NCBI GenBank assembly: GCA_951812735.1
Contig: OX638332.1
Coordinates: 1,469,928 to 1,533,927, forward strand
Reading direction: 5' to 3'
Origin: Candidatus Dadabacteria bacterium
Lineage (GTDB): Bacteria; Desulfobacterota_D; UBA1144; Nemesobacterales; Nemesobacteraceae
DNA: 64,000 bases
The position numbers were made by a program, and so were the translations under genes. The notes beneath the pieces are model-generated. The model did no database searches and had not been told where the DNA came from. It saw nothing but the letters and a program-made list of their open reading frames with translations. Shown one piece after another: positions 39,911-58,667 of the stretch; position 1 is the stretch's first letter; each line of letters begins with the position of its first letter.

Positions 39911-39970
39911 GGGAACCGATGCCGGCCGGAACGTTTCAGGATAAAAGATGGCGCGTGAGGAGAAAAGTCT

Positions 39971-41170
39971 TCAGGCCTCACCGTTTTCAAAAGTTCTGAG
40001 TATCCCGTAGGTCGTGTCACGTTCGGCTGGGATTCTGCCTATTTCTCTGGTGAGTTTTCTGAATTCCTCGGGCGGGAAATACTGTCCGTAACTTGCGCCG
40101 GCAAAGCGGGATATCTGCTCTTCCATGAGCGTTCCCCCGAAATCGTTTGCCCCGGCGGTGAGAGAGAACTGCGCAAACTCGGGTCCCTGCTTGACCCAAG
40201 AAACCTGTATGTTGTTTATCCATCCCCGCAGCATCATCCGGGAGACCGCGTACATCTTCAACTGGTCAAGGTCGGTCGGCCCCTTCCTCACCTTTCCCTT
40301 GGAGTGAATGAACAGTCTGGTGTTCCAGGGAATGAACCGAAGCGGCACGAATTCCGTGAACCCTCCCGTCTCTTTCTGGATGTCTCTCAGGATCCCCAGG
40401 TGTATGGCCCAGTGATGGCGCTTGTCGAGGTGTCCGTACATTATGGTCGAGGTAGTTCTCATCCCTTCCTTGTGGGCTTTTTTCACCACCCTTATCCACA
40501 CCTCGGTCGGGATCTTCCTGGGAGCGATTACCTTTCTTACCTCTTCAACCAGAACCTCAGCCGCGGTGCCGGGGAAGGTGTTGTGGCCGACGTCCTTCAG
40601 TTTCCTTATGAATTCCTCTTCCTCTATGCCGAGGGTCTTGGCGCCGTAGTAGATTTCGTAGGGAGAAAAGGCGTGGGTGTGCATCTCGGGCACGGCCTTT
40701 TTAACTGCCTTAATAAGCTCGACGTAGAAATTGCCGTCTATCTCGGGATGCATGCCTCCCTGCATGCATACTTCCGTCGCGCCTATTTCCCAGGCCTCCA
40801 CTGTCCTCTCGGCGACTTCGTCCATCGAGAGAAAATACGCCCTCTCATCCCCCTCGTCCGCCATAAAATTGCAGAACCCGCAGTAAACATCGCATATGTT
40901 CGTGAAGTTTATGTTCCTGTTAACGACGTAGGTGACCACGTCCCCAACGTCTTCCTTTCTTATCTGGTCGGCGGCGAGCGCAAGGGCGGATATCTCGTCT
41001 GTATCCTCTATGTTGAAGAGATGAATCCCGTCCTCAACCGAGATCTCCTTTCCCGAAAGCGCGTCTTCGATTATCCGGCCCGTCGTGCCGTTTATGCGCG
41101 ACATAACTCCGTCGACGCCTATGGGCCTTCTCTGCTCTATAGAGTCTATTATTTTGTTTATGTCTTCCAT
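39971..41170 (-). CDS. cofH: 7,8-didemethyl-8-hydroxy-5-deazariboflavin (FO) synthase subunit CofH (radical SAM)
   Basis: 'CDVYCGFCNF' CxxxCxxC and CofH-specific context. Confidence 0.8.
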   Translation of the reverse strand: MEDINKIIDSIEQRRPIGVDGVMSRINGTTGRIIEDALSGKEISVEDGIHLFNIEDTDEISALALAADQIRKEDVGDVVTYVVNRNINFTNICDVYCGFCNFMADEGDERAYFLSMDEVAERTVEAWEIGATEVCMQGGMHPEIDGNFYVELIKAVKKAVPEMHTHAFSPYEIYYGAKTLGIEEEEFIRKLKDVGHNTFPGTAAEVLVEEVRKVIAPRKIPTEVWIRVVKKAHKEGMRTTSTIMYGHLDKRHHWAIHLGILRDIQKETGGFTEFVPLRFIPWNTRLFIHSKGKVRKGPTDLDQLKMYAVSRMMLRGWINNIQVSWVKQGPEFAQFSLTAGANDFGGTLMEEQISRFAGASYGQYFPPEEFRKLTREIGRIPAERDTTYGILRTFENGEA

Positions 41171-41175
41171 TTTCT

Positions 41176-42435
41176 TCAGTTTACGGGAACGTACCCGTTT
41201 TCATCAACGTGCTCCCTTACCTTGCCCAGAACGTAGGGATCTATCCACTGCTCGTCTATATATTCGGGATAGACGGGAAGTCTTTCCCTAAGCTCGTAAC
41301 CCAGTGCGCTTACCTCCCTCTCCATTCTCTCAACCTGCGGCCACGGGGCCTCGGGGTTAACGTAGTCTATTGTAAGGGGCGACACGCCGCCGAGATCATT
41401 TATGCCGGCTGTGAGGTAGAAGGTGAAGTTCCTGTTGTTAAGGTTAGGCGGTATCTGTATGTTCATCTCCCCTCCGAATATGAGCCTTGAGATGGCGACG
41501 GTCTTGAGCATCTCGAGAAAATCGGCGGGAGGATACTCCTCCATTCTTATTCCTTCCTTGGGGTTAAAGTTCTGAATTATTATCTCCTGCAGGTGACCGT
41601 GGCGGCGGGAGAGTTCCAAAAGGGCGTAGAGCGAGTCGATTCTTTCCTCAAAGGTTTCCCCTATTCCTACCAGTATGCCGCTTGTCCAGGGAATACTGAG
41701 GTCGCCCGCATACTCCATGGTCTCCATCCTGAGTTTCGGGACCTTGTCCGCGCAGCCGTGGTGGGCGTTTCCCCGCTTAAGCAGCCTCTCGCTTATGTTC
41801 TCAAGCATGAGGCCCATGCTTGGGTTGCTTTTTCTGAACTCAGAGAGTTCTTCCGGGGTCGAGAGCCCGAGGTTTGTGTGGGGAAAGATTCCGTGCTCAA
41901 GCCCGGTTTTTCCCATGTCGATCAGATACTCCGCTGTCGTTTGGTAACCGATTTCCCCGAGGGCGTCTCTGTATACCTGGTAGGCGAGTTCCGGCTTGTC
42001 ACCCGTAACGAAAAGAAGTTCCGTGCACCCGGCCTTCGCCCCTTTTTTCGCCATGTCGACGACCTCTTCGGGGGTCATGAACAGAGCTCCCTCTCCCGGC
42101 TCTATCTTGAACGTGCAGTATCCGCAGCGGTCTCTGCAGAGCTGGGTCAGGGGTACGAAAACGTTTTTGGAGTAAGTTATTGTTTTTCCCTTTGAACGGT
42201 TCCTGACAGCCGACGCTGCCAGAAGAAGAAAAGGAATTTCCCTGGGGAAAAGCTCGGTAAGGTAGAGGGCGTCTTCACGCGTGACGCTTTCTTCCTCGAT
42301 TGCTTTTGATATTACTTTCTCAAGTTTCGGGGAGGGGCGAAGCTCCGAGAAGTCTCTCGCGCTGAATGTTTCAAGCAGCATGGAGCTTTCGTTTTCGCCG
42401 AATGTTTTTTCCCAAGTCTCAGCTAAAAGGGTCAT
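41176..42435 (-). CDS. cofG: FO synthase subunit CofG (radical SAM); start set at internal Met 'MTLLAETWEK'
   Basis: 'CRDRCGYCTF' radical-SAM motif and CofG-like length from Met122 of the 540-aa ORF. The upstream 121 codons overlap the divergent P4 region and are rejected. Confidence 0.8.
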   Translation of the reverse strand: MTLLAETWEKTFGENESSMLLETFSARDFSELRPSPKLEKVISKAIEEESVTREDALYLTELFPREIPFLLLAASAVRNRSKGKTITYSKNVFVPLTQLCRDRCGYCTFKIEPGEGALFMTPEEVVDMAKKGAKAGCTELLFVTGDKPELAYQVYRDALGEIGYQTTAEYLIDMGKTGLEHGIFPHTNLGLSTPEELSEFRKSNPSMGLMLENISERLLKRGNAHHGCADKVPKLRMETMEYAGDLSIPWTSGILVGIGETFEERIDSLYALLELSRRHGHLQEIIIQNFNPKEGIRMEEYPPADFLEMLKTVAISRLIFGGEMNIQIPPNLNNRNFTFYLTAGINDLGGVSPLTIDYVNPEAPWPQVERMEREVSALGYELRERLPVYPEYIDEQWIDPYVLGKVREHVDENGYVPVN

Positions 42436-42677
42436 ATACAGAAACCACCCGTTCCTTTTTCCGCGCGGAAATAATTTTAACGCCACCAACCCCGCCTGTA
42501 AGTATCTTATACTGGGGGCGTTTTTGTCAAGGAATGTATGCAGGATTGGAGGAACCGCGTCCTTGTTCGAAAATGTGCAGAATAGGTGGTACCATTTCAC
42601 CTGAAATGACTCTGCTGAAGTTTTACAAACTGCCGGGTCCGTCCGTTCCGCTACGCCGGGACGATATTCGCGCACGG

Positions 42678-44417
42678 ATGTGCACCTGTCTCCTGCGCCT
42701 CTCCCGTAGTTCCGCCCAGGCCGCAACGGGTCTTCTTCTCCTTCTTGCCGTCGTACTCGGCGCGCAGCCGGAGCCGGCCCACGCGCAGACCACAGCAACT
42801 TACACGGTAACGTTTGAAGGCAACTGGAACACCGACAGCACGCCCGGCGGGGTTGTGGGCGGCGCGCATTTCACGACGCTAATCGGCGCCGTGCATAACA
42901 GCGATGTGAGCTTCTGGGCACCGGGCGGCACGGCCACCGCCGGCGTTGAGGGGGTGGCGGAACTTGGCGCTACGGGCACGTTCAGGTTGGAAATCACCGC
43001 CGCCGGGGCAAACGTAAAATCCACCGTCCAGGAGAGTGGGACCGGCGCCACGGGCACGAGCACGTTCGAAGTCGAATTCAGCCGTACCCATCCCCTACTT
43101 ACCCTCTTGTCCATGATCGGCCCCAGCCCGGACTGGTTCGTGGGTGTCTCCGGTCTGTCTATGCTTGATGGATCGGATGCCTGGCGATCCTCTCACACGG
43201 TAGACCTGTTTCCTTACGACGCCGGCACGGAGGACGGTGAAGAATTTTCGCTGAACAATACCGCAACCAGCCCCCGGGGAACCATCACCAGCCTCGGGGG
43301 ACAAGGGAAATTCTCCGACACGCGCATGGCGAGGCTGAGTTTCACGCTTAAGACACCTTTGCCACCCCCCCCCACGCCTCCGTCTCCCCCTGAAGAAGAG
43401 ATATGCGTCGTTTCCGAAGTGACCGATGACCGGAGCCTCAGCAGATTCGTTGAGTGCGCGGCGGAGAACATAGAGGACTCTGTCACCTTTGAGGAGACAC
43501 TTAGCCTCCTTGACGAGTTCAGAAATGACGAAGGAGACTGGAATGACGGTTCCACTTACTTTGTTCTTCTCACCAAAGGAGGTGGGGTGTACTTCCACGC
43601 CCACGCCCCCGACAGGGAAGCGGAAGACCGGAGATGGTCAGGGACTGTCTTCTGTGACGAGGAGGGAGGAGACGTGCTTAACCTGCAAGCGGGAGATGGA
43701 TGCGCCATAGAGGGCGGCGGCTACGCCCATTCGTTCTCCGCTTCCCATGTTCCCCTGACCCGCGCCGGGGACGAATTCGTCCTGCTGGGCGGTTTCGACG
43801 AAACTCCCGAGGGGGAACCTTTCACGGAGATGATTGACGGACCCTCAACGGAAGCCGGGAATGTGGATACCGAAGAAGATCTGATGAAATTCGTGGGAGA
43901 GGCGGTGAAAGCCCTCAGGAAAACCGTAGGGGATCCTCTGATTGACCCCGTGCAGCTGCGGGGAGTTCTGAGACAGGAGCCGTGGAGAGAGGGGGAAGTG
44001 TATGTTTACATCATGGATGAGACTGGAAGGGTGATATTCGACGGCGGGGACAGGAGCAAGGAGCAGAAGCTAACGGATGATTCCGGAAGGGAATACGTCG
44101 TGGGGGAGCTTATAGCGGAGGGTGAAGAAGAAGTGGGGCACGTGGAAGGCGATTTCTGGATTTACGCTGAAAAGGTAGAAGAGGACAGTCGAATATACAT
44201 CGTGGGTTCGGGGTACCAGCCCGAGCCGGGTGAAAGCGGCGACGGAGGCGGGGGCTGCGCTGTCGGAGGGAGCGGTAGCGACGGCACATTCGGCCTGTCT
44301 CTTATAGCGTTGGCGCTGCTTCTAATAGTCTTGCTTAAAGACACTCGGCGTCAGGCAAGACGTATTGAGTTGAGGCGGGGTGTTGTCGCTTGTAACCGCT
44401 TAAGAGAAACGGAATAG
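42678..44417 (+). CDS. secreted Spondin_N + Cache-like domain protein P4 with C-terminal Cys-motif/TM/basic anchor
   Basis: Signal peptide 'LLLLLAVVLGAQPEPAHA'. Spondin_N hallmarks 'AHFTTLIGAVHNSDVSFW' and 'GPSPDWFVGVSGL...YDAGTEDGEEF'. Pro-rich linker. Cache-like 'VYVYIMDETGRVIFDGG'. C-terminus 'GDGGGGCAVGGSG...LSLIALALLLIVLLKDTRRQARR'. Start assigned to Met105 of the ORF. Confidence 0.65.
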   Translation: MCTCLLRLSRSSAQAATGLLLLLAVVLGAQPEPAHAQTTATYTVTFEGNWNTDSTPGGVVGGAHFTTLIGAVHNSDVSFWAPGGTATAGVEGVAELGATGTFRLEITAAGANVKSTVQESGTGATGTSTFEVEFSRTHPLLTLLSMIGPSPDWFVGVSGLSMLDGSDAWRSSHTVDLFPYDAGTEDGEEFSLNNTATSPRGTITSLGGQGKFSDTRMARLSFTLKTPLPPPPTPPSPPEEEICVVSEVTDDRSLSRFVECAAENIEDSVTFEETLSLLDEFRNDEGDWNDGSTYFVLLTKGGGVYFHAHAPDREAEDRRWSGTVFCDEEGGDVLNLQAGDGCAIEGGGYAHSFSASHVPLTRAGDEFVLLGGFDETPEGEPFTEMIDGPSTEAGNVDTEEDLMKFVGEAVKALRKTVGDPLIDPVQLRGVLRQEPWREGEVYVYIMDETGRVIFDGGDRSKEQKLTDDSGREYVVGELIAEGEEEVGHVEGDFWIYAEKVEEDSRIYIVGSGYQPEPGESGDGGGGCAVGGSGSDGTFGLSLIALALLLIVLLKDTRRQARRIELRRGVVACNRLRETE

Positions 44418-48788: not shown

Positions 48789-49041
48789 TTTGAGATTTCC
48801 TGGTACTGCGCGTACTCGGAAATTATCACGCAACCCTCCTCGAAAATCAAGTTTTCTGGTGCGTTGCGACTGTCTTTGGGCACTTCCTACATTCAAATAG
48901 ATCATTTGACCAAGAAAAAGAGGGGAGATAGAATAGGGTAGTAGGCATAAACGGACAGTTCTAGTGAGCAACATGGGAGGGAAGTTTAGGATTCTGTTAT
49001 TCGGGAGCATTGCAAGGACTTCCATCCTTACTTTCTGTGGA

Positions 49042-52023
49042 ATGAGATCAGCCGCGATGTCGTTTTTTATTGCTGGCGTGCTTGTCCTCGTTCTGGTCGG
49101 GTGTGACAGTGGCACCACACCTTCCGAATCTCCCGATCCTGACAATCCCGCGCACGGAAGCCCCGACCCCGATGTCCCACCGCCAATGGACACCGACCCC
49201 AGGGATCCCGCACTCCAACCCCTGATATACACAACACGACTGGGTCAGCCCATCGCCTTTAACATACAGGATGGTGACCCTCTGAATGCCCGGATTCTTA
49301 GGCAACCCCAGCAAGCAATGGTGATTTTGAATGCCGACGGCTCCGTTACCTACTCGCCCGCACCCGGGGCTGTTGGAGAAGACAGCTTCGAAATTGAAAT
49401 TAACGGAAGCCCGCGGGAGATCACCATTGACAACAACCTCGCTTATGAAGGCCAGATTGAGGGTGGAATGAACTCCTTCGGCAACGTTGAAGTGCTGTTG
49501 ACGGGGGATGGAGTATTGGAAACCGCGTCGCCGGACGCTTCCGGCGGGTTCAAGTTCTACGGGTTGCCGGACGGCGACTATGTTGTCAAGGTGCGGAAAG
49601 CGGGCTATACGTCATCGCTTGCCCGAGCGTTCAGCCTGGATATCGGGCAGTATGATCCTTTGCGTGATGGGATCGACCGATTTGTTCTGGAAGCGCTCGA
49701 TTCAGATACCTTTGTTTATCACTGGGAGGAAGATCAGAGTGCGGCTGGCTATGATTATGCGGCTCATGTGAACCAACCCGTAGTCGTGGAGTTTTTGGAT
49801 GAACAGGTTGAGGTGGTCGATGAAGTGTCAGCCAGCCAACTCCATCACGACTACAACATTTTGCTGGTTGATTCGGAAAGCGGTTCATGGACACAAGAGC
49901 ATGCCTATCGCCTTCTGGAAACCATGAAGTCCATCCCGCAGAAGCTGCGGGACCCCTATAAGGAACAGAACCTTCCCGCAAGCAAGTGGCTCATCACTTC
50001 CGACCACCTGGAGGACGACATCCGGATTACGCATCATGAAGAAGACTACAGGGCCGTTCTCATTTCCGAAGATGCCTTCGTCAATGCCAGCCCCCGGATC
50101 GCCAGAGTTGAAGGCAAGCGAGGCGTCTACTACTCACAACGTCTACACCACGCGCTGGTGCGCTTCGTTACGGATAACGGTAAGGATAAAGCTACGTACG
50201 AAGGGATTTTCCAGTCGCGTTACGGCGTCACGACCCGCATACCGGATTATACCCAGCTCACCAGCTCCACCACTGGCGAGTCCGCGTCGCGCTTTCAGGA
50301 ATTCCATCCCGAGGAAATAGTCCAATTGATCAATATGTTTGAGGAAATGCCCAAGGGGATGCACAAACTGCCTGAGCTGCGGTATCTGGTGCGGCGCTTG
50401 GACGGCACGCCGCACCCTATATATCCTGGTGCGCCTGCGGTGGCTTGGACCGATTATGGCTATATCGAATTCATGGAAAGCGGGTTCAGCGGGTTTTCCG
50501 CCGCCTATGTCCATCGCCTCATCATTCACGAAAAGGCACATTTCCTGTGGGCCCATCGGTTCGACGAGCAACTCAAGCAGGACTGGATCGAATTAGGCGG
50601 CTGGTACCACGACTCGGAAAGCTCCAGTCTCTGGTCGACGAGCAAACAGACGGAATTTGTCTCCGCCTACGCCCACTCAGAAAATCCAGAAGAGGACATG
50701 GCCGAGTCCATCGCCTACTTCATCGTGAATCCGGACAAACTGAAATCCCGAGCCATTGGCAAGTATGAGTTCATCCGCGACCGCATCATGCAAGGCAACA
50801 TCTACATCTCCACCATCCGAGAAGACCTGACCTTTGAGGTGTATAACCTGTATCCGGACTACGTCTTTCCGGGAAAGATCCGGCGAGTGGATATTGTGGT
50901 CGAGGGGGAGCCGGAGGACGACAAAACAATCCATGTGGAAATGGAGCTGCATGCTCTGGATGAGGAGTCGGAAGGAGCGGCAAAAGCCTATATGCGCATT
51001 TTCAGCGAGATCGGTACCTCTGTGGACCTGTACCTCTACCCCATGGATGTAAACGGCAACCAACTGACTCAAGGTACGGTGCTCAAAGGCAGATTTGCTC
51101 TCAGCAAGTACGTCAAAGCCGGTTACTGGCGGCCGAACCAGATTGTTATCACAGATGCGGTTGGCAACGAGCGGTTCGAAGGGGTAAATGACTTCGGGTG
51201 GAAACTCTACGTCGGCAACCTAGTGGAGGATCTCACCGCTCCTGGGTATGTGGGCAATACGGCGTCACTGAGCAAGAGCGTGACGAGCTTGGAAGGCCGG
51301 GAGGTTCAGTTGATTCATGCAACCTGGGAGGTGGATGAGGACACGGCAATGAGGGGGCAAGAACCCTGTTATGCCAGCCTGAATGATGATTTTCTGCAAA
51401 CCTACAGATATGATGCGTGGGGTTGGTATGACTCAGCCAGCAGGTTGTGTCAGGTGGACTTTATTATGCCCCACTATATGCCGAGTTCCACCTACAGGAT
51501 GAACTACATCAGCATGATCGACGAGGCACTGAATGTAAAGGGAGTTTACTTCACCCATCCTGGGAGTCTTCTGCATCCGGAGGAAAGTGTCGTGGATGAA
51601 ACGCCCCAGCAAATTGAACTGATAACCAACAATCCAGACCTTGAACCCCCTGAGTTGGATATCAACGACATCCAGATCAGTGCCAAGCCCACCTATCCGG
51701 AAGCGCCAAATGGCGAAACCCTGGTGACGATCACCTTTCGTGTCAGGGATAACATATCTGGTTACAAGATCGCAAGTGTGGAGCTACGCGATCCCCAAGG
51801 CATCGAGCATGAAGGCCGTCACTATCATGCAGGTCGCTCCCGACTATTCCCCGAAGGTGATCCCACCCATTGGACCACTCACACCCGAACGGTGCTTCTG
51901 CCACCGGGTTCTGCACCCGGTACTTGGGGACTGGCTGAGATGACGATTGAGGACCGGGCGGGCAATTTCCAGCGCTACGATTTCACCGAGATCATCTATT
52001 TCGATGTATTAAGCGGGGGTTGA
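49042..52023 (+). CDS. large lipoprotein with Ig/cadherin-like and carboxypeptidase-regulatory-like domains and an HExxH zinc-metallopeptidase-like core
   Basis: Lipobox 'LVLVLVGCDSG'. 'GSVTYSPAPGAVGEDSFEIEI' (Ig-like). 'SGGFKFYGLPDGDYVVKVRKAGY' (CarboxypepD_reg-like). 'YVHRLIIHEKAHFLWAHRFDE' (HExxH followed by an acidic residue). Codon usage looks ctg/ctc-rich relative to neighbours. Confidence 0.55.
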   Translation: MRSAAMSFFIAGVLVLVLVGCDSGTTPSESPDPDNPAHGSPDPDVPPPMDTDPRDPALQPLIYTTRLGQPIAFNIQDGDPLNARILRQPQQAMVILNADGSVTYSPAPGAVGEDSFEIEINGSPREITIDNNLAYEGQIEGGMNSFGNVEVLLTGDGVLETASPDASGGFKFYGLPDGDYVVKVRKAGYTSSLARAFSLDIGQYDPLRDGIDRFVLEALDSDTFVYHWEEDQSAAGYDYAAHVNQPVVVEFLDEQVEVVDEVSASQLHHDYNILLVDSESGSWTQEHAYRLLETMKSIPQKLRDPYKEQNLPASKWLITSDHLEDDIRITHHEEDYRAVLISEDAFVNASPRIARVEGKRGVYYSQRLHHALVRFVTDNGKDKATYEGIFQSRYGVTTRIPDYTQLTSSTTGESASRFQEFHPEEIVQLINMFEEMPKGMHKLPELRYLVRRLDGTPHPIYPGAPAVAWTDYGYIEFMESGFSGFSAAYVHRLIIHEKAHFLWAHRFDEQLKQDWIELGGWYHDSESSSLWSTSKQTEFVSAYAHSENPEEDMAESIAYFIVNPDKLKSRAIGKYEFIRDRIMQGNIYISTIREDLTFEVYNLYPDYVFPGKIRRVDIVVEGEPEDDKTIHVEMELHALDEESEGAAKAYMRIFSEIGTSVDLYLYPMDVNGNQLTQGTVLKGRFALSKYVKAGYWRPNQIVITDAVGNERFEGVNDFGWKLYVGNLVEDLTAPGYVGNTASLSKSVTSLEGREVQLIHATWEVDEDTAMRGQEPCYASLNDDFLQTYRYDAWGWYDSASRLCQVDFIMPHYMPSSTYRMNYISMIDEALNVKGVYFTHPGSLLHPEESVVDETPQQIELITNNPDLEPPELDINDIQISAKPTYPEAPNGETLVTITFRVRDNISGYKIASVELRDPQGIEHEGRHYHAGRSRLFPEGDPTHWTTHTRTVLLPPGSAPGTWGLAEMTIEDRAGNFQRYDFTEIIYFDVLSGG

Positions 52024-52273
52024 ATAACTTACCATCACGTCGCTCGCGTGCGCCGACGGCGACTGCCCTTGACCGTCAGCATGGCGTGCAGCCGTATAGA
52101 GAGTAATTTATACGAGAATACGAAAATATATGAGTCTGATATGATCTGACCTGTCAATTCAACTCGCTTCCTATATACTTAGGTGCTTCCTTGAAAACCT
52201 GGCTCCGTATATTTATAATTAGTCAAATACAGTAAAAGGCTGTGCAACGCACGGCTGAACGGAGGTTTTACAC

Positions 52274-53116
52274 ATGGCGGATTACGCGAACCCGGACGTT
52301 CTTGTGAGCACGGACTGGGTAGAGGAGCATATTGACGATCCCGATATAGTTATTGTGGAATCGGATGAAGACATACTGCTCTATGAAATAGGTCACATAA
52401 GAAATTCAGTAAAATTCGACTGGCAGACCGAGCTTCAGGACCAGCTTGTAAGGGATTACGTAAGCAGGGAAAACTTCGAGACGCTGCTTTCCGAAAAAGG
52501 CATTTCCAACGACCACGCGGTGGTTTTCTACGGTGACAGGAGCAACTGGTGGGCGTGCTACGCCTTCTGGACTTTTAAGGTTCTCGGACACGAAAAGTGC
52601 CTTATAATGGACGGCGGCAGGCAGAAATGGGTTGATGAGGGAAGAGAGTTCGTAAAAGATGTTCCCGAACGACCCAAAACAGATTACAAGGTATCGGCGG
52701 TCGATGAGTCGATAAGGGCTTTTCGCGATGACGTGCTGGAGCACATGGGCTCCAGCAAGCCGCTTGTGGACGTCCGTTCCCCGAAGGAGTATTCGGGAGA
52801 ACTTCTTCACATGGAGGCTTATCCCCAGGAAGGAGCGCTCCGCGGAGGGCATATTCCAGGCGCGGTAAATGTTCCCTGGGCCACGGCGGCAAACGAGGAC
52901 GGAACTTTCCGCTCGGCCGATGAGCTTGCCGATATATACGAGAAAGGACAGGGGCTTAGCAAGGACCAGGACGTGATTGCCTACTGCAGGATAGGGGAGC
53001 GCTCTTCTCACACCTGGTTTGTCCTGACCTATCTTCTTGGGTTTGCAAACGTCAGGAATTACGACGGTTCGTGGACCGAGTGGGGAAACCTTGTAAGGGC
53101 TCCGATAGAGAGATAA
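52274..53116 (+). CDS. sseA: thiosulfate/3-mercaptopyruvate sulfurtransferase (tandem rhodanese)
   Basis: Two rhodanese domains with the active-site loop '[12 protein letters not shown]'. Confidence 0.8.
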
Positions 53117-53198
53117 AAGGAGAGGCGTTTTTTATACGAAGAAAAAGGATGTGGTCTTGCGGGTCCGCATCCTTTTTTTTTTTGAAACTGCGGGAAAC

Positions 53199-53624
53199 AT
53201 GGCAAGCATAGAAGAGATAGTCAGAGAATTTCAAGGGGCGGACCGCCAAGGAATGATAGAGCTCCTGATAGATTATTCGGAAGGTCTTCCTGAAATTCCC
53301 AGAAGATTTGCCGAGCTTGCGGACAGGGATCTCAACAAGGTGCACGAGTGCGAAACTCCGGTCTTTATCTGGGTCGAAGTAAAAGACGGGAAGGCAAACA
53401 TATTTGCCGACGTCCCCGAACCGTTTCCGACTGTGAGGGGGCTTGTGTCGATTCTCGTAAGCGCTTTTGACGGACTCAGCCCGGAGGAGATCGAATCCGC
53501 ACCGGTGGACTTCATCTCCCGCCTCGGAATAGCCCAGAAGCTCGGGATAAGAAGGGTCAGGGGTCTCAGCGCGGTTTACGCGAGGATAAAAAGCGAGGTA
53601 AGAAGGCACGGCGCGGTCACATGA
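53199..53624 (+). CDS. sufE: SufE-like cysteine desulfuration (sulfur acceptor) protein
   Basis: 'VHECETPVFIWVEV' matches the SufE 'CQSxVWL'-type active-site region. Start placed at 'MASIEEIV'. Confidence 0.75.
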   Translation: MASIEEIVREFQGADRQGMIELLIDYSEGLPEIPRRFAELADRDLNKVHECETPVFIWVEVKDGKANIFADVPEPFPTVRGLVSILVSAFDGLSPEEIESAPVDFISRLGIAQKLGIRRVRGLSAVYARIKSEVRRHGAVT

Positions 53625-54010
53625 TTGAAGAAGACAGAATGAAGATGATCATGGATCATTACGAGAACCCGAGAAATTTCGGCCCGCTTGAGCATCCCAC
53701 CGTGACGCTCAGGGGCGGCAATCCCAATTGCGGCGACACCTTGAATATCTATATACGCACAGACGGCGGAAACGTTATAGAAGATATAAGCTTTGACGGG
53801 GAGGGCTGTACGATAAGTCAGGCCGCGGCTTCCCTTCTTACTGAATTTGCAAAGGGAAAGACCGTCGAGCGGGTAGGGGAACTCGATTCTGATTACCTCA
53901 GGGATATTCTGGGCAAAGACATTATGGTAACCCGCCCGAAGTGCAGCCGTCTTGCCCTTGAAACCCTTAAATCCTGGGTAAGGAATTTCGAAAGGGGAAA
54001 AACCGCCTGA
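53621..54010 (+). CDS. sufU: SufU/IscU/NifU-N-type Fe-S scaffold protein
   Basis: Three conserved Cys contexts 'GNPNCGDTL', 'GEGCTISQAAAS' and 'RPKCSRLALETL'. ATGA overlap with sufE. Confidence 0.75.
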   Translation: MIEEDRMKMIMDHYENPRNFGPLEHPTVTLRGGNPNCGDTLNIYIRTDGGNVIEDISFDGEGCTISQAAASLLTEFAKGKTVERVGELDSDYLRDILGKDIMVTRPKCSRLALETLKSWVRNFERGKTA

Positions 54011-54062
54011 TTTTTGGTATAATTCACGCTAACACTCAAGCAGACCAAAGGAGATTCAAGCA

Positions 54063-55397
54063 ATGAAAAACGGCAAACTCGACAAAACAATTCTGAGCGA
54101 GAGGATTGAAGAGGCGCTTAAATACCCTCTTTTCGATTCCATATTCAACAGGCGCTCAAGAAGGTTCGGCCTTGGAATGGAGCTTAAGGACAGCACCCTT
54201 GAGTTCAAATCGAATTATGATCCCGTACCTCTGAACGAGATCGAGGAAGCCCTCTTGGTGTGGGCGGGGACGGGGCTCACGGGGCTTTGCCTTGCTGACC
54301 TGCCTCCTGAGAACGGGATAGACCTTCTCTGCCAGTGGACGGGAAGGACCTGGCCTTCTGCGTGCAACAACCACGGAACGGAACTTTTTTTCACAAATGA
54401 CGACGGGCTCTATCATGTGGACGTGAAGAACATGCTTCCAAAGGAACACGAACTCGATCTGTTTTTCCAGATGTCCCGCGAGGAGAAAGCCGCGAGAATT
54501 CTTGAACTTTACAGGGAAAGCCTCAACAAGCTTGAAGACGGAAGGGCCGACATGCCCGACAAGATGCCGGGGCTTTTTGAGTTTAATCAGTGGAATGCCA
54601 ACAAGCCCGGCACCACGCTTTTTGTCCCCGTAACGGACGTGACAGAGGAGTACCTGAATCTTCTCACCCTTTACTGCGCTAACAGCTACGGATTCACGAT
54701 TATCGACGATCTTACCGGAAAGCCCGCGGGTGTTGAGAAGTGGGTGAAAAAAGGCAGGCTCAAGGGTGAAATCAAGCTCTCCCTGTTTGATCTTGAGGTA
54801 AGAATTCTTACGGGGCTTAACGTGGAGCAGGCGTTTATTACGCAGAACATGGCGCTTGCCCTCCAGCCCCTGGGGCTTGCGGGATGGGCGTTTACGGGCT
54901 TCATACCGAGATTCGCAATGGGCGCCGCTCCGAATCTGTTCAAGGGTCTTGGATTCCGGTTCATCCAGCCGAAAAAGGGTACGATTGATCCTCCTACCAC
55001 GGTTCCCGTAGGGAAGGACGGGGTTTTTGAAGCCTACTGTCCGCCTTACTATGAGAACATGGACGACGCGATCGATCACTTCCTGGCCCACAAGTGGAAA
55101 GCCTGGGAATCAGACAAGCCTTTCCCGTACACCGAACCTGATAGGCACCTTATGAAGGCCCCGAGGCCCACGGAGACCACCATGCAGATCGTAAGGGACG
55201 TTGCGAACTACATTTACGACACTTACGGCAGATTTCCCGCGTTTGTGGATCCCATGTACATGAGACTTGTTTTTCAGGCGATGCATATAGATCCGGATTT
55301 TTATGACCAGTACTACCCGAAAGGTTCTTATTCGGACAGGCATCTCCAGGCTTTTCTTGAGAATCATCCGGACCAGAGAGAGCGGTTCGAAAAGTAA
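54063..55397 (+). CDS. nitroreductase-superfamily protein resembling SagB/ThcOx-type dehydrogenases
   Basis: 'NRRSRRFGLG', 'PVPLNEIEEALLVWAGTGLTG', 'RTWPSACNNHGTELFFTNDDGLYHVD' and the C-terminal 'ITQNMALALQPLGLAGWAFTGF' follow the SagB-type pattern. TATAAT and AAAGGAG lie upstream. Confidence 0.55.
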   Translation: MKNGKLDKTILSERIEEALKYPLFDSIFNRRSRRFGLGMELKDSTLEFKSNYDPVPLNEIEEALLVWAGTGLTGLCLADLPPENGIDLLCQWTGRTWPSACNNHGTELFFTNDDGLYHVDVKNMLPKEHELDLFFQMSREEKAARILELYRESLNKLEDGRADMPDKMPGLFEFNQWNANKPGTTLFVPVTDVTEEYLNLLTLYCANSYGFTIIDDLTGKPAGVEKWVKKGRLKGEIKLSLFDLEVRILTGLNVEQAFITQNMALALQPLGLAGWAFTGFIPRFAMGAAPNLFKGLGFRFIQPKKGTIDPPTTVPVGKDGVFEAYCPPYYENMDDAIDHFLAHKWKAWESDKPFPYTEPDRHLMKAPRPTETTMQIVRDVANYIYDTYGRFPAFVDPMYMRLVFQAMHIDPDFYDQYYPKGSYSDRHLQAFLENHPDQRERFEK

Positions 55398-55426
55398 AAT
55401 CTCCCCGACCGGGGATCAAGATCGCT

Positions 55427-56725
55427 TTGCGGTCAGGGAGGAAACCAGTCATGCGCGTAGCTATTATAGGAAATGGGGTGACCGGGGTTGCAGCCGCCCT
55501 GAGTATACGCAGGCTCAAGCCCGAGTGGGAAATCCTCATGATCTCAGGGGAATCATCCTTCCACTATTCCCGCCCGGCGCTCATGTACATATTCATGGGC
55601 CACATGAGCTACAAGGACACTAAGCCCTACGAGGACAGTTTCTGGCGGAAAAACCGCATTGATCTCCTGCGGGGCTGGGTTACGGAAATTGATACCGCCG
55701 GGAAAAAGCTCATTATGCACGAAAAAGATCCCGTTTCGTTTGATAAGCTGCTTATCGCCACGGGATCAAAGTCAAACAAGTTCGGGTGGCCCGGTCAGGA
55801 CCTCGATGGAGTCCAGGGTCTCTACAGCCTGATGGATCTGAGGCTTCTTTACGAAAACGTAAAGGGCGCCCGAAGCGCCGTTATAGTCGGGGGAGGACTC
55901 ATTGGAATTGAGTTCGCCGAGATGCTTCACTCGCGCAATATCCACGTCACTTTTCTGGTGAGAGAGAACTCCTACTGGACGAACGTTCTTCCGATGGAAG
56001 AGTCGCGGATGATAAACCGGGTGATCACCGAACAGGGAATTGACCTCAAGCTCACCACTGAACTTAAGGAAATAGTCGGGGACGATTCGGGAAGGGTGCG
56101 GGGAGTTATGACCAACAAAGAGGAATTTATAGAATGCGAAATCGTCGGACTCACAGCCGGGGTAAGTCCCAACATCGCCCTTGCCAAGGCAAGCGGCATA
56201 AAAACGGGAAGGGGAATCCTGGTTGACTGGAGCTTCAGAACAGATATGCCTGACGTGTTTGCCGCCGGGGACTGCGCCGAGATAGTCACCGAAGGGGAGG
56301 GGAGAAACCTTATTCAGCAGGTCTGGTACACGGGCAAAAGCCAGGGGAGGGTCGCCGGAGAGGTCTTGGCCGGCCAGCAGAGCGTGTATGATCCCGGGAT
56401 ATGGTATAACTCAGCCAAGTTCTTCGATCTTGAGTACCAGACTTACGGTACTGTGAGTAATGCCCCCGTTGAGGGGGAAAGCAATCTTTACTGGGAGCAC
56501 CCCGATCACAGCCGTTCGATAAGAATCGTTACGAGAGACGGTGCGGTTTGCGGCATAAACGTCATGGGCCTTCGCTACAGTCACAGGGTCTGCGAGAGCT
56601 GGGTAGCGGAGAAAAGGTCTCTTGACTACGTGCTCGATCATCTCGGGGATGCCAATTTCGACCCCGAGTTCTACGAAAAATGCGAAGCGGAAATAATAAG
56701 GGAGATAAGGAAACAGGCCGCCTGA
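55427..56725 (+). CDS. FAD/NAD(P)-binding pyridine nucleotide-disulfide oxidoreductase family protein
   Basis: 'MRVAIIGNGVTGVAAA' and 'AVIVGGGLIGIEFAEML' dinucleotide folds, plus 'DVFAAGDCAEI'. Confidence 0.7.
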   Translation: MRSGRKPVMRVAIIGNGVTGVAAALSIRRLKPEWEILMISGESSFHYSRPALMYIFMGHMSYKDTKPYEDSFWRKNRIDLLRGWVTEIDTAGKKLIMHEKDPVSFDKLLIATGSKSNKFGWPGQDLDGVQGLYSLMDLRLLYENVKGARSAVIVGGGLIGIEFAEMLHSRNIHVTFLVRENSYWTNVLPMEESRMINRVITEQGIDLKLTTELKEIVGDDSGRVRGVMTNKEEFIECEIVGLTAGVSPNIALAKASGIKTGRGILVDWSFRTDMPDVFAAGDCAEIVTEGEGRNLIQQVWYTGKSQGRVAGEVLAGQQSVYDPGIWYNSAKFFDLEYQTYGTVSNAPVEGESNLYWEHPDHSRSIRIVTRDGAVCGINVMGLRYSHRVCESWVAEKRSLDYVLDHLGDANFDPEFYEKCEAEIIREIRKQAA

Positions 56726-58119
56726 TGGAACAGAACACGATAAATTACGATTTTGACGAAGAAACCCTGGGTTTTGAGGAACCGGAGAAGGCCCCGGCCA
56801 AACCCCTTGGAACCGGAGAAAAGCTTTCTCTCGCCGTCTTGGGATTCGGGATACTGATGTTTGCGCTTCAGGCCATGGGCATGCCTCCGGGCGGCACCTG
56901 GGCCGGATTCCTTCTGGTATTACTTCCTGTCTTCTTCGGTACGGCGTCCTACTTCTACCTTGATTTCAAAGGCACGGTTCCGGGTATCAAGCACGATAAC
57001 ATCTACTTCAGGGGACTGACTTCCAGGGGGATTCTGGGCTGGCTTGTCGGCATCGTGTTTACCGGTTTCTACGTAGCTCTTTACTGGTTCCCCGAATATC
57101 TGGCGGGGGGAATAAAAATCGTAAACCCGCTTTCGATGGCCCTCTCAGGTTCTCCGGCCAACAACTGGTTTTTCTACGGCTTTCTTTACACCGTGGCTGT
57201 CTTCGTTTTCGGCGTGAGAATGTTCATGAAATACAGGAATAACCGCTACCAGAAGATAAGAACGGCTTCGGTTATGTTCTTCCAGCTCGGCTTTGCCTTT
57301 CTTATCCCCAACATACTTATGCTGTTTAACCAGCCCGAGTTTTATCTCAGCTACTTCTGGCCGCTTAAACCCGAATACCTGTTCCCGGGCACTTTAAGCT
57401 ATTTTGTGAATCATCCCGGCGGGCTGGGAATGTTCCTTGTTTTCTGGGGAGCCGTAATGACTTTTGTTGGCACTCCGCTTCTTACCTACTATTTTGGCAA
57501 GAGGTGGTACTGTTCCTGGGTGTGCGGCTGCGGAGGGCTTGCGGAAACCATGGGGGATCCGTTTAGACAGCTTTCTGACAAATCGAAAAAGGCGTGGCGC
57601 ATAGAACGCTGGCTCGTTCATTCCGTACTGGTGTTTATAGTCATTACAACAGTTCTTCTCTGGGTTAACTCCGCGACTTCGGGAGCGGTGTTCGGAGAAG
57701 CGTCGATGTCTCTTAAGAAGTGGTACGGGTTTTACATCGGCGCCATTTTCTCGGGGGTTATAGGCGTAGGGTTTTATCCCATAATGGGAAGCAGGGTGTG
57801 GTGTCGGTTCGGTTGTCCCATGGCGGCTGTTCTCGGGATTTTCCAGAGGTATCTTTCAAGATTCAGGATTACCACAAACGGCGACCAGTGCATGTCATGC
57901 GGAAACTGTTCCACGTACTGCGAGATGGGCATAGACGTCAGAGCTTACGCCCAGAAAGGCGAGAACATAGTGAGAGCGTCATGCGTCGGATGCGGTGTAT
58001 GCTCGGCTGTGTGTCCCAGGGGAGTGCTTAAGCTTGAAAACGGGGGAACTTTCAAGGACAGGTTCTCCGGGTCGGACAAGCCGCTTGGGGCGCTTGTTGA
58101 TTCGCTGAAACATGTCTAG
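56725..58119 (+). CDS. NapH/MauN-like membrane polyferredoxin (4Fe-4S) with C-terminal 2x[4Fe-4S] ferredoxin domain
   Basis: TM helices, then 'GKRWYCSWVCGCG' and 'RVWCRFGCPMAAVLG' NapH-type motifs, then 'CMSCGNCSTYCEMG' and 'CVGCGVCSAVCPRG'. The start overlaps the upstream stop (TGATG). Confidence 0.7.
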   Translation: MEQNTINYDFDEETLGFEEPEKAPAKPLGTGEKLSLAVLGFGILMFALQAMGMPPGGTWAGFLLVLLPVFFGTASYFYLDFKGTVPGIKHDNIYFRGLTSRGILGWLVGIVFTGFYVALYWFPEYLAGGIKIVNPLSMALSGSPANNWFFYGFLYTVAVFVFGVRMFMKYRNNRYQKIRTASVMFFQLGFAFLIPNILMLFNQPEFYLSYFWPLKPEYLFPGTLSYFVNHPGGLGMFLVFWGAVMTFVGTPLLTYYFGKRWYCSWVCGCGGLAETMGDPFRQLSDKSKKAWRIERWLVHSVLVFIVITTVLLWVNSATSGAVFGEASMSLKKWYGFYIGAIFSGVIGVGFYPIMGSRVWCRFGCPMAAVLGIFQRYLSRFRITTNGDQCMSCGNCSTYCEMGIDVRAYAQKGENIVRASCVGCGVCSAVCPRGVLKLENGGTFKDRFSGSDKPLGALVDSLKHV

Positions 58120-58211: not shown

Positions 58212-58667
58212 TCAGATATTGAGGAATTCAACGGATTCCATGCTTTCCTTTTTTCCCCGGTCAAATCTTTCCACTACCTCGCCGCTTTTTATGTCAAAGA
58301 TGAAGCAGGATATCCCGGAAAGTATTTCCATATTGAACTCCAGGAAATTGTTTACGTAAATCTTGGAGTCTTCAATAGTTTCCTTGGGATCGGCTTTATC
58401 CGGTTTTCTTACGAGAATAAAATACGCGCACAGAAAGTCCGGGAGGTCGGCATTATGGGCGAATACTGCTTTTGAATCGTATTTGAGGATCACGTTATCG
58501 TTGAAATAGCGCTGATACCCGGCGATTAGTGGCTGGTTCAGATGAGACAGGGCGTAAACGATCGCGCAGGCGATTTTGTTCTGATTCTCAATCATGAAAT
58601 CAAGCGCTTCCTTGTTGAACTGCTCAAGTGTTTTTTCTGGTTTTTCCTTCTCTCGTGGTTCTCGCAT
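58212..58667 (-). CDS. hypothetical cytoplasmic protein encoded in a low-GC island downstream of rny
   Basis: Strong RBS 'aaaggagaaagaaATG'. The region is AT-rich compared with its neighbours. No recognisable domain. Confidence 0.45.
   Translation of the reverse strand: MREPREKEKPEKTLEQFNKEALDFMIENQNKIACAIVYALSHLNQPLIAGYQRYFNDNVILKYDSKAVFAHNADLPDFLCAYFILVRKPDKADPKETIEDSKIYVNNFLEFNMEILSGISCFIFDIKSGEVVERFDRGKKESMESVEFLNI

Follow-up and report, generated by a model that had tools for sequence, protein, structure and literature searches.

A co-directional block of sulfur-transfer and redox genes

The window, i.e. the complete 64,000-nucleotide stretch of Dadabacteria DNA that was analysed, carries on its forward strand, to which all coordinates given here refer, a block of genes in which a rhodanese–SufE–SufU group directly precedes three redox genes, termed genes 1, 2 and 3; none of these three has a second copy in the window. 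The upstream group had been named in an earlier note on this DNA, and Pfam confirms all its members. The rhodanese-type sulfurtransferase (52274..53116; 280 aa; Pfam Rhodanese, 2.5e-35) is a two-domain protein with the active-site sequence CRIGERS, which scores 125 bits against the NCBIfam model for 3-mercaptopyruvate sulfurtransferase and thus stays under the cutoff of 250. It is followed by a SufE/CsdE-like sulfur acceptor (53151..53624; Pfam SufE, 2.8e-23), whose true start is probably the ATG at 53199 (MASIEEIV...), because the ORFs of its relatives are approximately 141 aa long and begin with MTSIEEIV. The gene for a SufU/IscU-like scaffold or sulfur-transfer protein (53621..54010; 129 aa; Pfam NifU_N, 1.5e-26) overlaps the SufE gene by 4 nt, and its product reaches 89.4 bits with the NCBIfam SufU model at a cutoff of 92.5. 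A promoter-like site, TTGAAA-17-TATAAT (52191..52219), upstream of the rhodanese gene matches the consensus at 11 of 12 positions and, as a consensus match, may be the promoter from which all genes of the block are transcribed; no Rfam family was found in the window, and hence no riboswitch ahead of the block.

Gene 1 (54063-55397) starts with ATG and encodes a cytoplasmic protein of 444 aa. Directly readable from the sequence are an extended −10 element, TGgTATAAT (54015-54023, with TG at 54015-16 and TATAAT at 54018-23), and the Shine–Dalgarno sequence AAAGGAG (54047-54053), both of which had been ascribed to the trio; a consensus scan reported no −35 element for this extended −10. Genes 2 and 3 follow in the same direction, as also described earlier.

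A strongly diverged nitroreductase-fold protein

Gene 1 encodes a protein with the alpha+beta fold of FMN-binding nitroreductases, i.e. it has the very fold on which the earlier note had made its reading depend. Its structural neighbours are BT_0217 (8cqs), Reut_A1228 (3hj9) and BF3017 (3hoi), with McbC, BmdC and ThcOx, which are of the SagB type, being more distant; SagB, ThcOx and McbC are therefore not the closest structures. Sequence identity to known nitroreductase-superfamily structures is 10-16%, and with 444 aa the protein is twice as long as known relatives in this superfamily (approximately 190-220 aa), owing to large insertions and a C-terminal extension. Searches of Pfam, NCBIfam and the PDB (by phmmer and by profile) gave no sequence match; in particular, Pfam PF00881 does not match at E <= 0.01 and its gathering score is not reached, with even two distant relatives of gene 1 (P0317 and P0347) scoring 16.6-18.9 bits against a cutoff of 23.5.

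Three motifs had been taken as SagB/ThcOx-like, and all of them are present, i.e. RRSRRF (residues 30-35), PSACN (residues 98-102) and QNMALALQPLGLAGW (residues 261-275), but the last of these, which had been placed at the C-terminus, lies in the middle of the protein. R30-x-S32-R33-R34 is invariant, and this N-terminal RxSRR is a phosphate-binding-type motif. Whereas the fold and the motifs are observed here, we infer the cofactor, which is most likely FMN, of what would most likely be a soluble flavoprotein and a self-contained oxidoreductase acting on a small-molecule substrate.

An FAD/NAD(P)H oxidoreductase coupled to a membrane polyferredoxin

Gene 2 encodes an FAD/NAD(P)H oxidoreductase of the ferredoxin/rubredoxin-reductase class (Pfam Pyr_redox_2 PF07992, 7e-51, and PF00070, 1e-16). 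The 432 aa and the 30-nt distance to gene 1 that had been reported hold for a start at TTG 55427, with the gap being 29 nt, but the ATG at 55451 is more likely, because a GGGAGG Shine–Dalgarno sequence (55436-41) precedes it and because, with this form, alignments to orthologs of other phyla begin at residue 1. Gene 2 would therefore extend over 55451..56725, encode 424 aa and be separated from gene 1 by 53 nt. An intergenic hairpin (55401..55441; −20.5 kcal/mol, z −1.87) would pair with the gene 2 Shine–Dalgarno sequence; it is strain-specific, with no consensus structure across 16 relatives, and was dropped as a candidate device for coupling genes 1 and 2.

The protein has FAD- and NAD(P)-binding dinucleotide domains and no redox-active cysteine, as SFHYSRPAL occupies the position at which CoADR and Nox carry theirs. 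Against the equivalog models for HcaD, NorW, CoA-disulfide reductase and NirB it scores approximately 145 bits each, with cutoffs of 392-579. The nearest PDB entries are 1xhc (an NAD(P)H:rubredoxin oxidoreductase), 8c0z_E (AorC, annotated in that entry as a potential aldehyde oxidoreductase subunit), 3fg2 and 3ef6, and the architecture of two dinucleotide folds without a redox-active cysteine is shared with 1xhc, rubredoxin reductase, BphA4, putidaredoxin reductase and AorC. In NAD(P)H:rubredoxin/ferredoxin reductases, electrons pass from NAD(P)H via FAD to an Fe–S protein. The docking partner of AorC in its complex is a polyferredoxin subunit. Unlike in all of these, however, the Fe–S partner of gene 2 is integral to the membrane and its gene overlaps gene 2, and no oxygenase or tungsten enzyme is attached.

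This partner, gene 3 (56725..58119; 464 aa), has its ATG at 56725 within a TGATG overlap with the gene 2 stop codon. It is a membrane polyferredoxin with approximately eight predicted helices and Pfam matches to Fer4_5 and dicluster domains. Two membrane-proximal cysteine motifs (C263/C267/C269 in YCSWVCGCG and C360/C364-P365 in WCRFGCP) and two C-terminal CX2CX2CX3C [4Fe-4S] motifs (C389/392/395/399 and C420/423/426/430) are invariant, and all of them are predicted to lie on the cytoplasmic side. From the AF2 model of gene 3, whose quality is low (pLDDT 59), we took the helix positions alone; it would support neither a fold search nor the placing of a quinone site. The arrangement of cysteine motifs at cytoplasmic helix ends followed by two CX2CX2CX3C(P) motifs is that of NapH/NosH/MauN/YccM-type proteins, in line with the NapH/MauN-type assignment with two ferredoxin clusters in the earlier note; the match to the NCBIfam models is weak, with scores far below the cutoffs (TIGR02163, 56.6 bits versus 213; NF007013, 51.1 versus 234). 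Also, NapH/NosH/MauN/YccM-type polyferredoxins have four helices rather than approximately eight, and the constant partner of gene 3, in contrast to those of NapH, NosH and MauN, is a cytoplasmic Pyr_redox_2 protein; NapG/NapAB, NosZ/NosG or MauM genes were not found beside gene 3 in the window or in loci L090, L091, L092, L094 and L180.

In the most likely mechanism, the FAD of gene 2 would accept a hydride from NAD(P)H, and electrons would then be handed one at a time to the cytoplasmic [4Fe-4S] domain of gene 3; from this domain they would travel via the Cys-motif clusters at the membrane surface to an acceptor in the membrane domain. This acceptor would most plausibly be the menaquinone pool, with menaquinone being favoured because futalosine-type (MqnC/CofH-like) radical SAM genes are present in the window. 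Cofactors, the direction of electron flow, the quinone partner and any electron exchange between genes 1 and 3 in this lineage are what we infer.

Two probable redox units and their association in Dadabacteria

An important question is whether the three genes form a single unit. Genes 2 and 3 overlap, but gene 1 is not coupled to them in this manner, so that only the second half of the alleged ‘translationally coupled redox trio’ stands. The neighbourhood comparison that had been proposed as a check shows that genes 2 and 3 occur without gene 1 beside them, and gene 1 without genes 2 and 3. In five contexts, genes 2 and 3 have no gene 1 neighbour and overlap by 4 nt each time: in Engelhardtia mirabilis (Planctomycetota), in a MAG from the Acidobacteriota, on one contig from Zixibacteria and on a marine one, and in a Thermodesulfobacteriota genome of 3.1 Mb that does have a gene 1 homolog on this contig, but in another place; these orthologs are 57-67% identical, with gene 3 homologs being 58-65% identical across phyla. 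Conversely, genes 2 and 3 are found downstream of gene 1 in all 24 loci with at least 89% identity, in two of five at 82-89%, in four of 26 at 74-82%, in none of 11 at 60-74% and in none of 80 diverse loci of the family. The spacing between genes 1 and 2 varies from −4 to approximately 1,970 nt, and in loci L024 and L025 terminator-like hairpins lie in between. Within Dadabacteria, the order gene 1 > gene 2 > gene 3 recurs behind two upstream contexts, i.e. rhodanese–SufE–SufU and the c55-c56 genes (L051, L057, L061, L064), and in L061 the limits inferred by tblastn let gene 1 run into the start of gene 2, because of which there may be some selection for co-expression. Overall, the locus probably consists of two redox units that evolve independently of each other and lie side by side in one branch of Dadabacteria only.

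The three proteins could also make up one dedicated membrane-anchored relay, as the earlier note had it, with electrons passing from NAD(P)H to the FAD of gene 2, on to the Fe–S clusters in gene 3 and finally to the gene 1 flavin, or the other way towards quinone. The trio is found in 30 of the 66 Dadabacteria-type loci that could be evaluated, behind two upstream contexts; this and the inferred overlap in L061 are in line with such a relay, as is the behaviour of known nitroreductase-fold enzymes, for instance IYD, BluB and McbC, which are not known to accept NAD(P)H directly and depend on an external redox partner. Yet genes 2 and 3 do without gene 1 in the five contexts listed above, 36 of the 66 loci and 80 of 80 diverse ones have gene 1 alone, L024 and L025 combine long spacers with terminator-like hairpins, and the RBS-masking hairpin is not conserved. 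The interpretation in the earlier note is thus partly supported; the relay as a whole is quite unlikely. Somewhat less improbable, though still unlikely, is a partnership of gene 1 with the rhodanese, SufE and SufU, either as a flavin-dependent persulfide/polysulfide reductase or as an electron or iron-reduction helper in Fe–S assembly. Rhodanese and SufU genes lie directly 5′ of gene 1, with gaps of approximately 27-90 nt, in 40 of 72 evaluable loci, including all 12 loci of the most divergent clade (marine, 60-74% identity) and all but one of the 24 in the clade of the window. In the window itself, a strong promoter-like site precedes the rhodanese gene. However, in the clade of 74-82% identity 29 of 31 loci lack this adjacency, as does each of the 39 diverse family loci for which 2 kb or more of upstream sequence is available; the adjacency may reflect inherited synteny, and it comes without a cysteine desulfurase near gene 1.

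Very doubtful is a role of gene 1 as an oxidative-stress or detoxification flavoenzyme (NADH-oxidase or peroxide-related) that genes 2 and 3 would supply with reducing power, as NROR does in anaerobes. A paralogous subfamily (approximately 54% identical) lies directly 3′ of a Fur/PerR-family regulator in several lineages, in one lineage together with rubrerythrin, cytochrome c peroxidase and OsmC, and gene 2 is closest to an NROR-type enzyme, but this evidence stems from a paralog rather than an ortholog of gene 1, the window has no Fur/PerR-family gene, and other family members belong to catabolic clusters with DUF2148, ADC, thiolase and a sigma-54 activator or adjoin GcvT-like genes. That gene 1 encodes an azoline dehydrogenase of the SagB type, belonging to a cryptic RiPP pathway, is effectively refuted: the NCBIfam scan returned no family and hence no SagB match, generic nitroreductases outscore SagB-type enzymes as relatives, and gene 1 is conserved, single-copy and housekeeping-like across the phylum. 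The annotated neighbours in the window (rhodanese, SufE, SufU, the Pyr_redox_2 protein, the polyferredoxin and an RNase Y-like ORF) include no YcaO/cyclodehydratase, as already stated in the earlier note, and show no genomic partnership of gene 1 with a YcaO and a precursor peptide.

The tempting but unsupported three-component system is thus replaced by two testable subjects, the gene 1 family and the gene 2–gene 3 module. The latter combines an FAD protein with a membrane polyferredoxin at approximately 60% identity across several bacterial phyla, and literature searches found no description of this pair or of the trio. If it is a quinone reductase, it would provide an added entry point into the respiratory chain in many uncultured lineages. 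That this bicistron represents a type of membrane NAD(P)H:quinone (or other membrane-acceptor) oxidoreductase that spans phyla and had not been recognised before, and that it was recruited, in the Dadabacteria lineage of the window, as an electron sink or source for the new gene 1 family is a long shot, but would tie the rhodanese–SufE–SufU sulfur relay to the quinone pool.

The gene 1 family itself comprises approximately 1,700 clusters (50% identity) of 440-aa nitroreductase-fold proteins outside all domain libraries, in many different genomic contexts. A small conserved partner did not emerge, as ORFs of 106 and 107 aa located 3′ of two distant homologs are mutually unrelated and missing from the window; an 80-aa ‘GxMGVWD’ protein recurs beside distant family members, but the window encodes no convincing homolog of it. 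In L081 and L096, two paralogs lie in tandem, which would be compatible with a heterodimer. Tat signals are present in some members of the family, and a fusion to an MpaB/Lcp oxygenase domain in others.

Layout of the locus

The three genes described in the earlier note lie as co-directional ORFs at 54063-58119 of the window: gene 1 (54063-55397, + strand; 444 aa, ATG start) for a nitroreductase-fold protein, gene 2 for a FAD/NAD(P)H oxidoreductase and gene 3 (56725-58119, +; 464 aa) for a membrane polyferredoxin. The reported signals could also be read, i.e. an extended -10 element, TGgTATAAT (54015-23, +), and AAAGGAG (54047-53, +) with the gene 1 ATG nine bases downstream, as well as the TGATG overlap of genes 2 and 3, within which the gene 3 ATG (56725) sits. 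For gene 2 the ORF itself stands, but not its proposed 432-aa version starting at TTG 55427 with a 29-nt gap to gene 1; ATG 55451 (+; 424 aa) is the likelier start because of a GGGAGG Shine-Dalgarno sequence (55436-41) and ortholog alignment, which for orthologs of four other phyla starts at residue 1 of the 424-aa version. The true gene 1–gene 2 gap is therefore likely to be 53 nt. A hairpin in the window, which could mask the gene 2 Shine-Dalgarno sequence, is not conserved. The gene 1 region is 100% identical in CATOTB010000001.1, a Candidatus Dadabacteria MAG.

Upstream of gene 1, the sulfur-relay genes were found as claimed (52274-54010): rhodanese (52274-53116, +), SufE-like (53151-53624, +) and SufU-like (53621-54010, +), with a strong promoter-like site (52191-52219, +) ahead of the rhodanese gene. 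The mechanical SufE-like ORF begins at GTG 53151, the relatives' genes start at the equivalent of ATG 53199 (MASIEEIV), and the true gene probably starts there and encodes about 141 aa. Just upstream of the rhodanese gene, 48964-52023 (+) encodes a probably exported 1,019-aa protein in which Big_9 and CarboxypepD_reg-like domains are combined with an HExxH motif (IHEKAH); a homolog was detected in only 2 of about 25 closely related loci (88-90% identity), and the site therefore differs between strains. Convergent on the gene 3 end is a 151-aa ORF (hyp151; 58212-58667, -), which is 80-99% conserved in Dadabacteria relatives and has no Pfam match. The gene 3–hyp151 interval behaves as an insertion hot spot, with 1.5-4 kb of extra DNA in several loci of close relatives (L002, L007, L009, L010, L019, L020 and L080).

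One relay or two units

The trio had been interpreted as one coupled electron relay. In a first set of 80 genome loci, all Dadabacteria-type, 66 had enough downstream flank, and genes 2-3 followed gene 1 in 30 of these, i.e. in all 24 loci with gene 1 at least 89% identical to that of the window, in 2/5 at 82-89%, in 4/26 at 74-82% and in 0/11 at 60-74%. A second set comprised 80 diverse metagenome loci of the gene 1 family, whose gene 1 homologs share 33-74% identity with that of the window; the flanks reached at least 3 kb downstream in 32 loci and at least 2 kb upstream in 39. None of the 80 contained a homolog of gene 2 or gene 3, or of the rhodanese, SufE or SufU genes. Co-conservation of the three genes thus breaks down outside a narrow clade, an outcome that the earlier note had itself named as refuting its reading. 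The gene 1–gene 2 junction is loose, the extremes of its spacing being -4 nt in L061 and about 1,970 nt in L057, and in L024 and L025 terminator-like hairpins and AT-rich spacers separate the two genes. By contrast, the gene 2–gene 3 pair occurs without an adjoining gene 1 in five contexts (Engelhardtia mirabilis L090, Acidobacteriota MAG L091, Zixibacteria contig L094, marine contig L180 and the 3.1-Mb genome L092), with a 4-nt overlap in all and identities of 57-67% for gene 2 and 59-67% for gene 3 orthologs. Since its flanking genes differ in all five, the pair is an autonomous bicistron; in L092 a gene 1 homolog, P0038, is listed on a contig of equal length and so lies elsewhere on that contig. 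The best-supported reading of the locus is therefore that of two separate units, A (gene 1) and B (genes 2-3). Electron exchange between the gene 1 and gene 3 products may occur in the window lineage, but only adjacency supports it.

Overall, the earlier observation is confirmed and its interpretation partly supported. Neither literature nor curated models gave a description of the gene 1 family, the gene 2–gene 3 pair or the trio. The trio is not a new three-component system; we rate its parts as known kinds in new form, namely a flavoprotein of nitroreductase fold and, as a pair, a polyferredoxin resembling NapH and a flavoprotein of the ferredoxin-reductase type.

The putative electron path of unit B

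Gene 2 carries Pyr_redox_2 and Pyr_redox domains (7e-51) and scores about 145 bits against each of the NCBIfam equivalogs HcaD, CoADR, NirB and NorW (cutoffs 392-579). Its closest solved structures are NROR-like 1xhc and AorC (8c0z_E); an NADH oxidase (6pfz) comes next, ahead of rubredoxin and ferredoxin reductases. Its sequence SFHYSRPAL is without a redox-active cysteine. For gene 3, a low-confidence model predicts about eight helices, and the motifs YCSWVCGCG, WCRFGCP and two CX2CX2CX3C are invariant. Its NapH/MauN-type label holds as NapH-like but not as NapH itself (56.6 bits, cutoff 213). Homologs with 58-65% full-length identity occur, where the source names the organism, in Planctomycetota, Acidobacteriota, Zixibacteria, Krumholzibacteriia, Myxococcota, Eisenbacteria and Dadabacteria.

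From the positive-inside rule we infer that all Fe-S motifs of gene 3 are cytoplasmic, and gene 2 would dock on this side. Electrons from NAD(P)H would enter the FAD of gene 2; in gene 3 they would then pass to its two [4Fe-4S] clusters and to the clusters of its membrane-proximal Cys motifs, and finally to a membrane acceptor, plausibly menaquinone, because the window holds MqnC/CofH-like radical SAM genes. At 37037-42798 (-), a 957-aa fusion of FAD-linked oxidase (GlcD-like) and Fe-S/CCG (GlcF-like) domains adjoins two radical SAM genes, one of them MqnC/CofH-like, which points to futalosine-pathway menaquinone synthesis.

The gene 1 family and its neighbourhoods

Unit A would be a flavin oxidoreductase. 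Its nitroreductase fold was confirmed, but the specific SagB/ThcOx label was not; the missing YcaO partner is unsurprising in itself, since stand-alone SagB-family nitroreductases are already known (PMC10055417). Single-sequence and profile searches gave no match to gene 1 in Pfam, NCBIfam or PDB sequences. A 5.8-billion-protein set contained 1,974 homologs, all labelled 'hypothetical' where a source name exists, and an exhaustive profile search (E <= 1e-3) yielded 1,709 clusters at 50% identity, with members mostly of 400-480 aa. R30, S32, R33, R34, D113, R161, N175, D215, H408, Y414 and H435 are invariant family-wide, whereas invariance of Cys101 is limited to close relatives.

Of the 72 Dadabacteria-type loci that could be evaluated, 40 have rhodanese and SufU genes directly upstream of gene 1, with 12/12 in the most divergent marine clade but only 2/31 in the 74-82% identity clade. 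This adjacency, absent from the diverse family loci outside the phylum, could be a remnant of ancestral synteny or mark a genuine link. A subfamily of paralogs, which share about 54% identity with gene 1, directly follows a Fur/PerR-family regulator in several lineages (L083-L089, L106, L107, L109, L110), in one locus type together with rubrerythrin, luciferase-like monooxygenase, cytochrome c peroxidase, OsmC and an FNR-like reductase. Immediately upstream of distant relatives recurs an approximately 80-aa protein with a conserved GxMGVWD motif, a hydrophobic tail and no Pfam match (L131, L137, L139, L141, L149, L154, L170, L173), often with a GcvT-like aminomethyltransferase downstream. Other members occur alongside two DUF2148 genes, ADC-family genes, thiolase/DUF35, MaoC and a sigma-54 activator. 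With such varied neighbourhoods, the family seems to provide a versatile flavoenzyme scaffold that serves many pathways.

A few members (P0262, P0286, P0311) carry Tat (twin-arginine) signal peptides, which would imply export with the cofactor already bound, and in P0305 (863 aa) an MpaB/Lcp-type oxygenase domain is fused to a gene 1-like domain. Two 440-aa paralogs stand back to back in L096 (1130-3787), and L081 (6618-9358 and 14894-15952) holds a 444-aa copy, a truncated 318-aa copy without RRSRRF and a third paralog; such tandem or multiple paralogs suggest that this nitroreductase-fold family includes heteromeric forms.
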